From positions 64,001 through 128,000 of the forward strand of contig JBGASG010000010.1 of assembly GCA_044229845.1 (NCBI GenBank): a stretch of DNA of 64,000 nucleotides, written 5' to 3'. Numbering within the stretch: position 1 is the first letter of the stretch; every line of letters begins with the position of its first letter. The notes beneath the pieces were generated by a model, which ran no database searches, was not told the DNA's origin, and saw only the letters and a list, made by a program, of their open reading frames with translations. This document shows, piece by piece, positions 34,695 to 43,923 of the stretch. Made by a program: the position numbers and the translations under genes. Origin of the DNA: Candidatus Obscuribacteraceae bacterium. Its GTDB lineage: Bacteria; Cyanobacteriota; Vampirovibrionia; Obscuribacterales; Obscuribacteraceae.

Positions 34695-35197
34695 TGGTTA
34701 AGTGCGATCACAGTGATACCAGACTCAGTTGCGTCGATTGCTCGCAGCCGGTCTGTCCCGGCTGCATGGTGCAGTGCGCCGTCGGTCAGCGCTGCCCCAA
34801 GTGCACCGGCAAGTTCACCAGCCATGTGGCTAAATCTGCAAAGTTTTCGCTGGCCAAAACTTTGCTCTTCAGTTTTGCTTCCGGATTCGGCCTCTGTTGT
34901 CTGTCCATGATGCTCAGCGCGGTGATGGGTTTGCTCAGCTGTTTCAACCTGGTCATCGTCGGCTTTTTCGGTGTCATGCTCGGGCAAAAAATCAATCAGA
35001 CGGTGGGTTTGGGCAACGCACGCAAATACATGCCCTGGGTGGGAGCAGCTTGCGCAGCCGGCGTACTGGTGCATCCGGTTGGCTGGGCGATGGTCTTCTC
35101 ACTGATGATGGGCGACCTGTCAATCATCGCTGCAGCATGGCTGGCGCCTGTTTTGATTGTGCTGACCGTGATGGCGCCGATTATTTCCGATTCGTAG
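34694..35197 (+). CDS. Zinc-finger (B-box-like) membrane protein
   Basis: CxH..CxxC...CxxC...CxxC N-terminus plus ~4 TM helices; TAATG overlap with the GT2 gene. Confidence 0.7.
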   Translation: MVKCDHSDTRLSCVDCSQPVCPGCMVQCAVGQRCPKCTGKFTSHVAKSAKFSLAKTLLFSFASGFGLCCLSMMLSAVMGLLSCFNLVIVGFFGVMLGQKINQTVGLGNARKYMPWVGAACAAGVLVHPVGWAMVFSLMMGDLSIIAAAWLAPVLIVLTVMAPIISDS

Positions 35198-35430
35198 AAT
35201 AGAGTCGCAGAGGGCGATTCGTCGATTCCGGTCGATGAGAGACAGCCCTTCCTACTATCGATGCTGGGCCTCATATCGGTCGTTGGTTGGGCGATTTGGG
35301 GATCGGTCCTAAATTAAGCTTCGCTCAACGGGAGATCGGAGGGCACCAACCACAAGCTATCCTACGCGGAAACGCGTTGACCTGGTCCGCGGATGGAAGT
35401 GTAGATCAGCCTTTGACAACGAGGGGTTTT

Positions 35431-36780
35431 ATGACAGCCGGGAAGCAGAAAAAGAACGTAATCATCATGGGTGCCGCCGGACGGGACTTTCATGACTTCA
35501 ACGTGTTCTGGAAAAACGAGCCCAACTGCAACGTTGTGGCATTCACCGCCGCTCAGATTCCGGACATCGCCGGAAGAACTTATCCAGCTCAATTAGCTGG
35601 GCCTAACTATCCGAAGGGTATTGCCATCGAGGACGAGGCGAACATCGCCAAGCTGATCAAACAGCACGAAGTCGACGAATGCGTGCTCGCTTATTCCGAC
35701 TTGAATCATAAGGACGTCATGCACAAAGCTGCTGCCGTCAACGCTGCCGGCGCCGCCTTCAAAATGCTGGGCTGGCAACAGACCATGATTCCTTCCCAAA
35801 AACCAGTGATTGCCATTTGCGCAGTGCGCACCGGCTGCGGCAAAAGCCAGACAACCCGCAAAGTCTGCGAATACCTGAAAGCAGCCGGCCTGCGCGTGGC
35901 GGTCGTGCGTCACCCGATGCCCTACGGCGATTTGACGAAACAAATCTGTCAGCGCTTCGCCACTCTCGAAGACCTCGATAAGCATGAGTGCACCATCGAA
36001 GAGCGCGAAGAATACGAACCACATATCGTGGCCGGCAACCTGCTGTTCGCTGGTATCGATTACGGTGCCATTCTGGAAGCCGCAGAAAAAGAAGCCGACG
36101 TGATCGTCTGGGACGGCGGCAATAACGATCTGCCGTTTTTCAAACCGAGCCTGCACATCGTGGTCACCGACCCGCATCGTCCGGGACACGAGATGTCCTA
36201 CTATCCGGGCGAAACCAACCTGCGCATGGCCGACATAATTGTCATCAACAAAGTCGACACCGCATCAATCGACAATATCGCTATCGTCGAAGCCAACATT
36301 CGCGCCGTTAACCCGAATGCGAAAGTCGTGAAAGCCGAATCGCAAATCACGGTTGCCGATCCCGAACTGGTCAAAGGCAGTCGCGTGCTCGTCGTCGAAG
36401 ACGGACCGACATTGACTCACGGAGAAATGGCTTTCGGCGCCGGCTACGTCGCCGCCAAGCGCGGCGGTGCTTCGGAAATCGTGGACCCGCGTCCGACCGC
36501 AGTCGGTTCAATAAAAGATACGTTCGAGCACTATCGCCACATCACCGAGATTTTGCCGGCGATGGGCTATGGCGAAAAACAAATGTCAGAGCTGGAGAAA
36601 ACGATCAACTCGACGCCCTGCGATCTGGTCTTGATCGGCACTCCGATTGACTTGTCTCGCCTGCTGAAAATCAACAAGCCGACGACTCGCGTCACTTATG
36701 ACCTGGTCGAACAAGACTCGGATCACCTGCGCAAGATGATTGAAAAAGTTACTTCGAAGAAAGAGGCGTGTGCAAAATGA
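35431..36780 (+). CDS. COG2403 P-loop protein (annotated GTPase / cyclic 2,3-diphosphoglycerate synthetase-like); probable arginine synthetase ArcE homolog
   Basis: GAAGRDFHDFN, AFTAAQIP, AVRTGCGKS P-loop, RHPMPYG, TIEEREEYE, WDGGNND, EDGPTLTHG; GAGGGG RBS before ATG 35431. Confidence 0.8.
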   Translation: MTAGKQKKNVIIMGAAGRDFHDFNVFWKNEPNCNVVAFTAAQIPDIAGRTYPAQLAGPNYPKGIAIEDEANIAKLIKQHEVDECVLAYSDLNHKDVMHKAAAVNAAGAAFKMLGWQQTMIPSQKPVIAICAVRTGCGKSQTTRKVCEYLKAAGLRVAVVRHPMPYGDLTKQICQRFATLEDLDKHECTIEEREEYEPHIVAGNLLFAGIDYGAILEAAEKEADVIVWDGGNNDLPFFKPSLHIVVTDPHRPGHEMSYYPGETNLRMADIIVINKVDTASIDNIAIVEANIRAVNPNAKVVKAESQITVADPELVKGSRVLVVEDGPTLTHGEMAFGAGYVAAKRGGASEIVDPRPTAVGSIKDTFEHYRHITEILPAMGYGEKQMSELEKTINSTPCDLVLIGTPIDLSRLLKINKPTTRVTYDLVEQDSDHLRKMIEKVTSKKEACAK

Positions 36781-37688
36781 ATTCCACAATGAATAAATCC
36801 ATCGTATACGACCGCGCGGATCAACTGCCGCAGAACTTCCTCGCCTCTTGCCGCAAAATGCCGTTGCCCACCACCATGCTCATGTGCCGCCCGGAAAACT
36901 TCGACGTAGTCGATGTGAAAAATCCGCACATGGAAGGCAACATCGGCAATGTCGACAAAGGCAAAGCCGTTTCTCAATGGGATGCGGTGCGCGAAGCGTT
37001 TCTTCAATCAGAAGCGCAAGTCGAACTGATCGAGCCGGTACCGGACTGCGAAGACATGGTGTTCTGCGCCAATCAAACCTTCGTTGGACTGGATGCCGAC
37101 GGCAAGAAACTTTGCGTGCTCAGTCAGATGAAACACGCATCCCGTCAAAGAGAAGTGGCAGCTTTCGGAAAGTGGTTCGGCGAGCGCGGCTATCGCGTGG
37201 AGAATCTGCCCGGGCAGATCGGCTTCGAAGGATCGGGCGATGCCATCTGGCATCCAGGCAGAGCACTGGTCTGGGGCGGCAGCGGCTTCCGCACCGAGAG
37301 TGAAGTCTATCCGCACATCAGCTCGTTCTTCGGCGTTCCCGTCATTCGCTTGCCGCTTAAATCCGATCGCTTCTATCACCTCGATACGTGCTTCTGCGCA
37401 ATCGACGAAGAGACCGTATTGATCAATCCGCGCTCACTCACCGAAGAGGGAGTGGCGATGATCCGTGCCGTGTTCAAGAACGTCATCGAGTGTGATGAGC
37501 AGGAAGCCAACGAAGGCATGGCTTGCAATGCCACCGCCATCGGCGCCAAGCATGTGTCAATCCAGAAAGGCAACGACAAGACGGTTGCGGCTCTGCAGAA
37601 GCTCGGCTACAAGGTGATCGAAGTCGACACTTCGGAATATCTGAAATCGGGCGGCAGCGTCTTCTGCATGAAGATGTACGTGTTCTAG
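36777..37688 (+). CDS. Guanidino-modifying (pentein) hydrolase, ArgZ N-domain / arginine dihydrolase-like
   Basis: LMCRPENFDV..KNPHMEGN, DMVFCAN, FEGSGD, YHLDTC, C-terminal GGSVFC (catalytic Cys); ATGA overlap at 36777-36780. Confidence 0.8.
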   Translation: MNSTMNKSIVYDRADQLPQNFLASCRKMPLPTTMLMCRPENFDVVDVKNPHMEGNIGNVDKGKAVSQWDAVREAFLQSEAQVELIEPVPDCEDMVFCANQTFVGLDADGKKLCVLSQMKHASRQREVAAFGKWFGERGYRVENLPGQIGFEGSGDAIWHPGRALVWGGSGFRTESEVYPHISSFFGVPVIRLPLKSDRFYHLDTCFCAIDEETVLINPRSLTEEGVAMIRAVFKNVIECDEQEANEGMACNATAIGAKHVSIQKGNDKTVAALQKLGYKVIEVDTSEYLKSGGSVFCMKMYVF

Positions 37689-37694
37689 AGTTTT

Positions 37695-37875
37695 TCAGAG
37701 CCGGGATGCCGGTTCGAGAAACTACGCAAACTAGCAGCTTAAGAAACAGGCACGGCATCAATTGCGGTGCCTGTTTCGTCACAGACGTAAATTAAACGTC
37801 ACAGAAGCAGGTGCGTTCGGACGCCGATTTACCAATCACTAACTAAAGTTTTCATGTAGGCAGAACGGCTCAGAC
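37695..37875 (-). ncRNA. ssrS: Probable 6S RNA (long rod-like hairpin with internal bubble)
   Basis: ~180 nt. End-to-end pairing on minus strand: GAGCCG/CGGCTC, TGCC/GGCA, GAAAACT/AGTTTCT, CGGCGTC/GATGCCG, CCTGCTTC/GAAACAGG. G-U pairs favour the minus strand; region is intergenic. Confidence 0.55.
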
Positions 37876-38125
37876 CCACCTCTCCGATGCCTTTTGCAAA
37901 GTTGAACGGCACACGACTCAGCCGCGGGAACCGCGTGCCCGGCAGGCTTGGAACTGCAGCAAATGTATTGAACCGATACGTTTCGCGGCACGGAAATGCC
38001 CCTGGTGTATAATCTGCCTCAGCTTTTGTCTCACTTTTGTTGTGCTCCCTGCTGGGGCCGATCATTTGTTCCGATGGTAGAGGCCCAGGCCAGTCAGAGT
38101 CTCAAGAAGAAGGGAGGAAGAAATA

Positions 38126-38500
38126 ATGGAGGTAAAGCCAGTGTTTCGTCCACTAGTCAGAATCGCATTCCTTGCCCGCGCAACTTTCGAAGTCGGTCGC
38201 GAACGCGTTGAAGACGCGATCGATGCCCTCACCGCTCGCGCCAGCGAAGCCAAATCCACCGGCGAAGAAAGACTGCACGAAGGGCAGGACAAAGTAAAAC
38301 AAGTCGCCAGCGAACTCTACCAACAAGTTTGGCAGCGTTCCGAAGTGCTGGAAAGCCAGGTGCGTGAAAAACTGAAACGCCAAGTTGCAGATTTCTCGCT
38401 CGGCGCTCTCGGCGATGCCACTGAAATCAACGAGCTTCGTGCTGAGCTAGCCACTCTGCGCGCCGAACTCAACGACCTCAAAGGCAAAGCAACAGCCTAA
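38126..38500 (+). CDS. Coiled-coil protein, Sll1769-like / phasin-like
   Basis: AFLARA..EV..ERVEDA N-terminus and INELRAELATLRAEL C-terminus; GGAGG upstream; lies before an ABC1 kinase. Confidence 0.65.
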   Translation: MEVKPVFRPLVRIAFLARATFEVGRERVEDAIDALTARASEAKSTGEERLHEGQDKVKQVASELYQQVWQRSEVLESQVREKLKRQVADFSLGALGDATEINELRAELATLRAELNDLKGKATA

Positions 38501-42100: not shown

Positions 42101-42766
42101 ATGGTGTTTCAAATGGCTGACATCGCATTCAATTCGGTTGGCGATAGTACCCAGAACCAGCGGCGTGTTCCGCGCCTGGTACTGGCATCTCAGTCGCCAC
42201 GGCGCATCGACCTGCTGCACGCGCTGGGCTTGCGCTTTGAGGTGATTCCCAGCCAGGCTGACGAAACTATCGAGCCCGGCGAAGAGCCGGCAGCCATGGT
42301 GCGCCGGCTGGCACAGAAGAAAGCCGATGAAGTGGCCACGCGCCTCAGTGAGGTCGGCAGCGAATCTGTAGTGCTGGGCGCCGACACCACGGTCGCCCTG
42401 GACGGTGAGTCGCTGGGCAAGCCGGAATCGCGCGAGGAAGTGGTGAAGGTACTGCGCCGCCTCTCGGGCAAGTCCCACGAAGTTTATACGGCGGTGGCGC
42501 TGATTTGCCTGCCGCGCAAGGAAGTGCTTCTTGACTACCAGGTGACGCGGGTCTATTTCCGCGAACTACGCGACGCCGAGATCAGGGCGTATGCACAGCT
42601 GGACGAGCCCATGGACAAAGCCGGATCCTACGCACTGCAAGGCGTCGCTTCCTGCTTTGTGGAAAAAATAGAAGGCTGCTACACGAATGTGATCGGGCTG
42701 CCGATACCACTGACGGTATCAATGCTGCGCAAAACCGGGATGCGCGTTCTCGACATCCCCACCTGA
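42101..42766 (+). CDS. maf: Maf nucleoside-triphosphate pyrophosphatase (YhdE-type)
   Basis: LASQSPRR, GADT, LGKP, LSGKSH, DKAGSYALQG, NVIGLP. Confidence 0.93.
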   Translation: MVFQMADIAFNSVGDSTQNQRRVPRLVLASQSPRRIDLLHALGLRFEVIPSQADETIEPGEEPAAMVRRLAQKKADEVATRLSEVGSESVVLGADTTVALDGESLGKPESREEVVKVLRRLSGKSHEVYTAVALICLPRKEVLLDYQVTRVYFRELRDAEIRAYAQLDEPMDKAGSYALQGVASCFVEKIEGCYTNVIGLPIPLTVSMLRKTGMRVLDIPT

Positions 42767-43923
42767 TGGCCATAGAGACCTCCGCCTCCGAAAGACTGAA
42801 GCGCGAGCTGCAAGGCTTTCGGTTTTGCTTTCCGATTATGGATAGACTCGGGGAGTTTCTGGATTCAGATCAAAACAATCACCTGCGCGGAAAAGTGATC
42901 GGCTGGCACTGCCACCTGACCTCGATCACCGCGGCCACTGCGGAAGTGATGGTGACCGCCGGTGCACGTCTGTTTCTTTCCGAGTGCAACCCGCACACCA
43001 CCGACCATGACTCGGTGTCCTACATGCAGAGCCTGGGTGCGCAAGTCTTTACCGGCGCGCAATCAGTTGAGAAGGTGCTGGCGGCCGCGCCGGTTTTGAC
43101 CTCGGACACCGGCTTCGTGCTCACGCGGGCAGCGATTGCCGGCGGTCGCCTGCCATTCGCCGGCAACGAAATCACCAGCTCGGGCGTGAGCGCCTTACGC
43201 GCACTGCCGGCGGTGCCAATGCCGGTGATCAACATCAACGATGGGCAACTGAAACATAATATCGAAAACTTTCATGGTGTCGGCGATGGTGTCATCGACG
43301 CGCTCTTCAAGTTAACCGGCAGAGTCTGGTCAGGTCGACCGGTAGCAGTTCTCGGCTACGGTCGCGTCGGCGCCGGCGTAGCCCGTTACTTGCAGCAGCT
43401 GGGGGCAGTGGTGGCGATCGCGGAAGTCGATCCGGTGCGTCAGTTGATGGCGCATTATGACGGTTTTGCGCTGACATCGCTGGCACAAGCGCTGCCCCAA
43501 AGCGAGCTTTTGATTACCGCCAGCGGCAGTCGATCGCCGGTGCCGGAGCAGCTCTGGCACACCGCCCGTCCCGGCATGGTGGTTTTGAATGTGGCGCACT
43601 TCGCCAGCGAACTGGATTCTCTTAAAGAAACCGCCACTGCAGTGACGCCTTTCAGTGAACATCTGGAACGTGTGCAGTTAGAGGGGACGCATGTGCTCAT
43701 GGCTACGTCCGGCAGCCCGGCGAACGTGGTAATGCTCACCGGCTCCGCCGAACCATGCCTGATTCACCTGACCACCGAAATGCTTTCCCTTAACTACCTG
43801 GGCGCCCTTCTGGACAGAGGCGAGAGCTTGCCTGCCGGCGAACACAAAGTTCCATATGAAGTTGAGCGACAGTCGAGCCTGCTGGCTCTGGCGGCACTGG
43901 ACGGCAGCGCCGCGCAGCCCTAG
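42766..43923 (+). CDS. Divergent adenosylhomocysteinase (AhcY)-like protein
   Basis: CHLT, SECNPHTTD, EITSSG, KHNIENFHG, GYGRVG, EVDP, AHF, PAN. Confidence 0.75.
   Translation: MAIETSASERLKRELQGFRFCFPIMDRLGEFLDSDQNNHLRGKVIGWHCHLTSITAATAEVMVTAGARLFLSECNPHTTDHDSVSYMQSLGAQVFTGAQSVEKVLAAAPVLTSDTGFVLTRAAIAGGRLPFAGNEITSSGVSALRALPAVPMPVININDGQLKHNIENFHGVGDGVIDALFKLTGRVWSGRPVAVLGYGRVGAGVARYLQQLGAVVAIAEVDPVRQLMAHYDGFALTSLAQALPQSELLITASGSRSPVPEQLWHTARPGMVVLNVAHFASELDSLKETATAVTPFSEHLERVQLEGTHVLMATSGSPANVVMLTGSAEPCLIHLTTEMLSLNYLGALLDRGESLPAGEHKVPYEVERQSSLLALAALDGSAAQP

Follow-up and report, generated by a model that had tools for sequence, protein, structure and literature searches.

Here we describe a pair of overlapping genes in a 64,000-nucleotide window of a contig from a Candidatus Obscuribacteraceae bacterium (JBGASG010000010.1, positions 64,001 to 128,000; the window is this whole stretch). 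A gene of the arcE family, encoding an arginine synthetase or ATP-forming arginine deiminase (P0001; 35431..36780, + strand, an open reading frame (ORF) of 449 aa), is directly followed by the gene of a stand-alone ArgZ-fold pentein (P0002; 36777..37688, + strand, an ORF of 303 aa), and the stop codon of the former overlaps with the start codon of the latter in the sequence ATGA (36777..36780, + strand). The pair is conserved beyond this genome, and the pentein and carbamate kinase alternate across arcE genomes. We lean towards the interpretation that ArcE and the pentein form a two-step breakdown of arginine to ornithine that conserves one ATP, with the pentein replacing ornithine carbamoyltransferase (OTC) and carbamate kinase. 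The broader proposal seems to us evenly balanced, namely that the pair is a third energy-conserving architecture of arginine catabolism, combining ArcE with a new pentein subfamily, specific for citrulline, that evolved on the scaffold of arginine dihydrolase and did not undergo the Asp-to-Asn change of CtlX. This subfamily would have been paired with arcE repeatedly across phyla and would swap with OTC and carbamate kinase, for an irreversible conversion of arginine to ornithine by two enzymes with substrate-level ATP.

In the proposed route, ArcE would first convert arginine, ADP and Pi to citrulline, ammonia and ATP, and the pentein would then hydrolyze citrulline to ornithine, CO2 and ammonia. 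Cys297 of the pentein would attack the ureido carbon, ornithine would leave, and the S-carbamoyl adduct would be hydrolyzed by water. Cysteine attack, ornithine release and hydrolysis of the carbamoyl-enzyme constitute the second half of the dihydrolase chemistry. The hydrolysis could act as an irreversible pull on the near-equilibrium ArcE reaction (Keq ~10), with a predicted yield of one ATP per arginine from two enzymes, compared with two ATP from ArcE, OTC and carbamate kinase. Ornithine would then pass to ornithine aminotransferase.

Assignment of the first gene to the ArcE family

ArcE was described in 2024 (Michimori et al., PMC11032458) as an enzyme specific for L-arginine that interconverts arginine, ADP and Pi with citrulline, ammonia and ATP at a Keq of ~10, with OTC and carbamate kinase as its partners. 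The assayed enzyme rejects D-Arg, agmatine, guanidine and dipeptides, and the same article describes the role of ArcE outside Thermococcus as untested.

P0001 carries the GAAGRDFH motif at residues 14–21 and is 60% identical over 447 aa, without gaps (572 bits), to P0169, which represents a Thermococcales protein cluster of 201 members. The listed members of this cluster include proteins of Thermococcus eurythermalis, T. peptonophilus, T. sibiricus and Palaeococcus pacificus, each of which has one arcE according to Table S1 of PMC11032458. The characterized TK2200 is not among the 15 of the 201 members displayed, and the assignment to ArcE is one step removed. P0001 shows the full-length, high similarity to Thermococcales ArcE that defines the family, for which PMC11032458 used BLASTP E<1e-100 and a length of >380 aa. 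The structures of cyclic 2,3-diphosphoglycerate (cDPG) synthetase (PDB 8ORU, 9SXB), a distant P-loop relative, were matched faintly, with E values from 2.5e-5 to 4e-4 and best stretches of ~110–130 residues, and Pfam and NCBIfam returned weak P-loop matches only. By similarity, rather than by a tree including the cDPG synthetases, P0001 sides with ArcE, and the ArcE tree places it within arcC-linked homologs. These comparisons support P0001 as a member of the ArcE family, which would, by homology to the TK2200 family, form citrulline, ammonia and ATP from arginine, ADP and Pi. The name "cyclic 2,3-diphosphoglycerate synthase", under which RefSeq and other databases list ArcE homologs, is a mislabel for the ArcE family.

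In the ArcE-ArcB-ArcC pathway of Thermococcus kodakarensis (Michimori et al. 2024, PMC11032458; 2026, PMC13260591), the first step would thus be the same as here, catalyzed by a colinear enzyme of the same family. The partner here is a pentein hydrolase instead of OTC and carbamate kinase, and one ATP without formation of carbamoyl phosphate is predicted. As far as these two articles describe them, the Thermococcus arcE clusters contain arcB, arcC, arcD, arcR and nhaC3 only.

The stand-alone pentein

The best structure matches of P0002 were the dihydrolase domains of ArgZ/AgrE (Synechocystis Sll1336 and Anabaena Alr4995; PDB 6JV0, 6JV1, 6JUZ, 6LRH), with E ~1e-43 and 34–38% identity. Its AlphaFold model (pLDDT 96) shares the fold of the ArgZ N-terminal domain (6jv0), with a TM-score of 0.84 and a root-mean-square deviation of 1.6. 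P0002 has the length of this domain only, unlike the bifunctional ArgZ/AgrE enzymes of ~700 aa with multiple domains, and the C-terminal part of ArgZ found no tblastn match anywhere in the assembly of the source genome (G000; 5.16 Mb, 88% complete).

P0002 carries the motifs NPHM (N49), DMVFCAN (N99) and HLD (D203). The alignment gives E151/H201/C297 as the catalytic triad and N49, D93, N99, R123, R172 and D203 as further active-site residues, together matching N22, D65, N71, R90, E118, R139, H168, D170 and C264 of ArgZ; P0002 thereby has the Cys-His-Glu triad and the equivalents of N22, N71, R90, R139 and D170 of an ArgZ-type domain. We take the aligned ArgZ residues to have their active-site roles, and the PDB titles themselves name the mutants N71S and C264S/A. 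Eight of these residues (N49, N99, R123, E151, R172, H201, D203 and C297) are common to at least 95% of 33 arcE-linked and 22 ArgZ-type sequences. Between these two sets, the changes Y19D, I21K, P64E, F85M, E89S, A258S, A261S and K263F are fixed (ArgZ numbering, anchored on INPWM), and they adjoin active-site residues. We rejected D46/K48 as a marker of linkage to ArcE, because eight of ten unlinked copies share it.

P0002 lies below every NCBIfam cut-off, including those of ArgZ/AgrE (NF052231, 199 vs 1025 bits; NF052232, 200 vs 450), TIGR01078 (24 vs 489), NF045658 (41 vs 450) and NF045659 (178 vs 300). It lacks the F.RD or F.ED motif of arginine deiminase ArcA and DDAH, and it has FCAN and HLD, whereas in CtlX both of the substrate-binding Asp positions are occupied by Asn (FPNN and HTN). 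In a quick IQ-TREE analysis of 120 sequences (two partial ones dropped), a clade of 95 sequences including P0002 was split from the cyanobacterial ArgZ and the mycobacterial type with a support of 99. Judged from its sequence, P0002 is a member of its own subfamily of ArgZ-fold penteins, which the databases label DDAH-like or "arginine deiminase-related". Atlas searches reached generic DDAH/GTPase clusters only. The named close homologs of P0002 are from Obscuribacterales, and the cyanobacterial carriers of ArgZ belong to the same phylum. The stand-alone ArgZ-type pentein Rv2323c of Mycobacterium tuberculosis (NF045659) lies in a rocD cluster and is needed for arginine use (PMC4569260), whereas P0002 is ~33% identical to a mycobacterial homolog of a different clade, whose locus (L233) is without arcE.

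When extended or fused versions of the pentein were sought, one of 2129 candidates matched, an ArgZ-like protein, and no arcE fusion was seen in this insensitive search. Structure prediction of an ArcE-pentein complex scored 0.20, with the mark at 0.32, and was used neither for nor against an interaction. The source genome has a second pentein, 44% identical to P0002, unlinked and with the same catalytic motifs (L001:8397-9341; G000:C18:164396-165340).

The initial annotation had proposed from the DNA letters that two genes overlap by ATGA, that the first one encodes an ArcE-like enzyme, and that the second one encodes a pentein with NPxM and DMVFxAN patterns that lacks the C-terminal domains of ArgZ. 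The ORFs and the sequence bear out the overlap, the gapless 60% identity to the Thermococcales family upholds the ArcE assignment over that to cDPG synthetases, and the description of the pentein agrees with the motifs and length found here.

The changes adjoining the active site, the scores under all NCBIfam cut-offs and the DDAH-like label could be accounted for if the substrates of the pair were not arginine and citrulline but relatives of these with a guanidino or ureido group, for instance methylarginines, homoarginine/homocitrulline or canavanine. We consider such substrates improbable, because the first protein is so similar to Thermococcales proteins, of which the assayed family member rejects D-Arg, agmatine, guanidine and dipeptides, because the closest ArcE outside the pairs (in genome G028) is located with arcB, arcC and rocD, and because neighboring rocD genes point to ornithine.

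Conservation of the gene pair

Among 107 genomes of the order Obscuribacterales, arcE was found in ten, and in nine of these the pentein gene lies directly downstream. The pair thus occurs in eight genomes of the order besides G000; it is also present in one Acidobacteriota genome (G322) and in 26 of the 80 best metagenome loci of P0002. Because of this recurrence, the adjacency is more than chance. In the 26 metagenome loci, which include near-duplicates, arcE lies within 600 bp of the pentein gene, on the same strand upstream (12) or downstream (10), divergent (2) or convergent (2); it is 4.6 kb away in one further locus, and 31 loci could not be judged. In a FastTree analysis of 138 ArcE sequences, 21 pentein-linked ones fall into three branches and require at least five label changes. 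We regard it as largely excluded that the two genes are neighbors by inheritance alone, unconnected in function. The order's nine pair genomes are related to one another, and no complex has been demonstrated; such an inheritance, however, is at odds with the four arrangements, the three ArcE branches, the label changes, which are forced by the starred branches, and the differing flanks.

No third gene recurs with the pair across the loci, and the flanking genes vary. One locus (L157) has rocD, arcE and the pentein gene in one run, and in another (L142) an ornithine aminotransferase gene precedes the pentein gene alone. The pair is a minority form of ArcE: none of the 80 GTDB loci that match P0001 best contains it. 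Of these arcE genomes, 50 diverse ones were searched whole, with no close pentein and five weak matches of 23–27% identity (best E 9e-13).

Close orthologs of P0002 (at least 68% identity) occur in 12 genomes of the order, of which nine are paired, one (G015) is cut by a contig end and two are without arcE. In one of the latter, G098, the close pentein has as its divergently oriented neighbor a 531-aa protein (L327:5992-7587; G098:C25) with the deiminase-like pentein motifs WARD, DGGD, HMD and GALRC, a weak PF04371 match (E 3e-4) and no match in the PDB. A deiminase would give a ureido product, and this neighbor therefore fits the citrullinase idea, as a single case.

Alternation with carbamate kinase

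Neither G322 nor any of the order's nine pair genomes gave an arcC match, all of them being incomplete or of unstated completeness; the carbamate kinase of the known arginine synthetase pathway was thus not found in them. Only two of the 107 genomes of the order match arcC, G028 over the cut-off and G027 partially. G028 is also the sole arcE genome of the order without the pentein, and it holds both arcB and arcC. In the locus L223:6650-12399 (G028:C224), its arcE converges with an arcB-arcC-pyrB-rocD block; in the FastTree analysis, the encoded ArcE (77% identical to P0001) falls within the pentein-linked ArcEs. This locus is a complete arginine synthetase pathway with the gene of aspartate carbamoyltransferase inside, which suggests that carbamoyl phosphate derived from arginine might feed pyrimidines, as reported for T. 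kodakarensis.

Of 401 evenly sampled Acidobacteriota genomes (one of which, G257, is counted only in the totals 401 and 253), 229 have arcE, 253 have arcC and 18 have an ArgZ-like pentein. The arcC gene accompanies arcE in 224 of the 229 arcE genomes, which makes the arginine synthetase pathway a seemingly major route of the phylum, whereas none of the 18 pentein genomes has arcC. The five arcE genomes without arcC include both genomes with arcE and pentein, G322 (adjacent) and G631 (unlinked). The corresponding Fisher test (p 4e-4) overstates the alternation, because kin are not independent and the genomes are metagenome-assembled. No fetched locus combined the pentein with carbamate kinase or OTC, many of the flanks being only 1.5 kb.

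In Acidobacteriota, as in the order, it is the subfamily of P0002 that co-occurs with arcE. The canonical ArgZ-type enzyme (YVINPWM...GGAAKC) is encoded in eight Acidobacteriota genomes, none of which has arcE, against a base rate of 57%; this avoidance is expected if a true arginine dihydrolase and ArcE are alternatives.

Two observations on the Acidobacteriota sample stand on their own. A second ArgZ-like subfamily (L296-L309) carries His at the N71 position (FVAH/FVGH/FLAH) and is without the catalytic Cys (GGSAKSL/GGSAKAL); often beside pyrF and often co-occurring with a canonical ArgZ-type copy, it is possibly an inactive arginine- or ornithine-binding paralog. The arcE matches in G382, G548, G243, G506, G276 and G377 lie in open frames of 750–1480 aa, which may be fusions or merely long stop-free upstream runs.

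OTC, argG and the direction of ArcE

The initial annotation had noted that OTC and carbamate kinase are absent from the window. Neither was found in the window or in the G000 assembly, whose sole gene of the OTC/aspartate carbamoyltransferase family is pyrB, and argG had no match in G000 either. For OTC, this absence does not extend to the relatives, as argF and argG are present in all eight other pair genomes of the order. G001, of the same genus and 97% identical in DNA at the locus, has an argCJBFGH operon (argC, argJ and argB being labels read from sequence) that found no blastn match in G000. Because G001 has the whole operon and G000 is 88% complete, the lack of OTC and argG in G000 is probably an assembly gap. 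We dropped the idea that ArcE replaces argG in G000, since argF and argG are missing only there, together with the whole arg operon of G001. The partner consistently unfound in pair genomes is carbamate kinase. The OTC itself is located in the biosynthetic arg operon, and with a Keq of ~5e-6 for reverse OTC (PMC9007349), it would be a poor sink of citrulline without carbamate kinase. An argH-family gene over the cut-off (428 bits; L122:1375-2874, G000:C8) lies apart from any arg operon, beside a nucleotidyltransferase gene, and G001 has a separate argH within its arg operon.

Because the other pair genomes have argG, ArcE is not needed there for arginine synthesis, from which we infer that it works in the catabolic direction; PMC11032458 likewise expects ArcE to be catabolic wherever argG/argH exist. 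The pair might also run in reverse, with ArcE aminating citrulline to arginine and a dihydrolase converting arginine to ornithine, CO2 and two ammonia, for a net conversion of citrulline and ATP to ornithine. Such a route, again from citrulline to ornithine, would agree with an active site of the ArgZ type and with the way in which the pair alternates with OTC and carbamate kinase, and reversibility of ArcE is established both in vitro and in vivo (PMC11032458). We nevertheless think it distinctly unlikely: ArgG/H already make arginine from citrulline in G322 and in all eight pair genomes that the order has besides G000, the Ks of ArcE for ammonium sulfate is ~110 mM (PMC11032458), the synthesis direction is uphill by +7.6 kJ/mol (PMC13763154), and no citrulline transporter gene recurs across the loci.

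Citrulline or arginine as the substrate of the pentein

The role of the pentein as a citrulline hydrolase, which genome context suggests, resembles that put forward for CtlX (Price et al. 2022, PMC9007349), a pentein proposed to take over from reverse OTC and carbamate kinase by hydrolyzing citrulline to ornithine. CtlX has ocd or aruG as neighbors, whereas P0002 has arcE. CtlX itself is a putative citrullinase without biochemical proof, and a proven pentein citrullinase was still wanting in 2022, according to PMC9007349.

Several observations weigh against citrulline as the substrate or against the coupling. None of the aligned active-site residues of ArgZ is changed in the pentein, whose HLD motif keeps D203, an aspartate that suits a guanidinium, where CtlX has HTN. 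OTC is available in the other pair genomes of the order, and G000 itself holds the unlinked paralog. Arginine deiminase was not found in five tested pentein-only genomes of the order, so that a source of citrulline is not evident there; 32 of the 44 genomes of the order with a pentein match have only more distant copies (27 of them at 39–51% identity) and no arcE. Among the close orthologs, those of G098 (91% complete) and G063 (79% complete) are without arcE, as are 22 of the 80 metagenome loci despite flanks of at least 1.5 kb. Three Acidobacteriota arcE genomes (G253, G374 and G487) have neither arcC nor the pentein. All gene absences derive from incomplete metagenome-assembled genomes of partly related organisms. 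RNA contigs from four runs of two studies cover arcE and the pentein gene partially at a depth of 2–5, and none spans the junction by at least 31 bases on each side; as they carry neither strand nor level, co-transcription is not demonstrated.

With such an intact ArgZ active-site set, the pentein might be an ordinary stand-alone arginine dihydrolase that works parallel to ArcE in an arginine-use operon, supplying ornithine and nitrogen, while ArcE would give ATP and citrulline for recycling by ArgG/H, for OTC (to carbamoyl phosphate) or for excretion. Many members of the subfamily reside in genomes without arcE or arginine deiminase, the stand-alone homolog Rv2323c is required for growth on arginine (PMC4569260), and ArcE and OTC supply carbamoyl phosphate in T. 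kodakarensis (PMC13260591). We judge this explanation unlikely, although it is the one to be taken most seriously among the alternatives. A parallel dihydrolase would be a competitor of ArcE, at the expense of the energy that ArcE conserves, the canonical ArgZ type avoids arcE genomes, and the retention of ArcE where arcC was not found would be left unexplained. In addition, two of five tested pair genomes (G084 and G099) already have an arginase over the cut-off; the others have agmatinase-like or sub-threshold proteins, which corrects a preliminary assignment of arginase to all pair genomes. In G084, the arginase gene (L227:9930-10985; G084:C219), over the TIGR01229 cut-off, has the same orientation as arcE-pentein and precedes it by ~1.6 kb, with a DUF2071 gene and a lexA-like gene in between. 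The pentein may also accept both arginine and citrulline.

The coupled pathway had been suggested by the initial annotation. The conserved pairing and the complementarity with carbamate kinase are stronger evidence for it than that annotation had, whereas the ArgZ-like Asn pattern, on which it had also drawn, does not by itself favor citrulline.

Flanking genes and expression signals

A purine-rich stretch resembling a ribosome-binding site, GAGGGG (35421..35426, + strand), lies 4 nt 5' of the arcE ATG, partly within a small predicted hairpin (35410-35425), and the ATGA overlap would allow translational coupling of the two genes. A promoter scan found no sigma-70-like promoter for the pair. 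A weak terminator-like hairpin follows 3' of the pair (37754..37771, + strand), from a scan whose seven sites compare with 3.8 +/- 1.9 in shuffles and give a weak signal. Rfam had zero matches at E<=1 across 35150-38150. The flanking genes are unrelated to the pair; those upstream encode a glycosyltransferase and a small membrane protein, and those downstream encode a 124-aa protein and an ABC1 kinase. Elsewhere in the window (42766-43923), a 385-aa protein has an adenosylhomocysteinase-type NAD-binding domain (PF00670) and no catalytic-domain family match in the Pfam scan; it might be a divergent protein like S-adenosylhomocysteine hydrolase.

Implications

ArcE and stand-alone ArgZ-type penteins such as Rv2323c were already known. 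Their coupling and the swap with arcBC appear to be new, as we did not find them in the literature searched, most subscription journals being outside the search. The reverse route from citrulline via arginine, if true, would also be undescribed. If the two-step breakdown of arginine by ArcE and the pentein is true, it would be a second arginine synthetase pathway, which requires no carbamoyl phosphate, and would provide a function for a pentein subfamily now labeled "DDAH" or "arginine deiminase-related". It would also show that the dihydrolase fold can switch from a guanidino to a ureido substrate.

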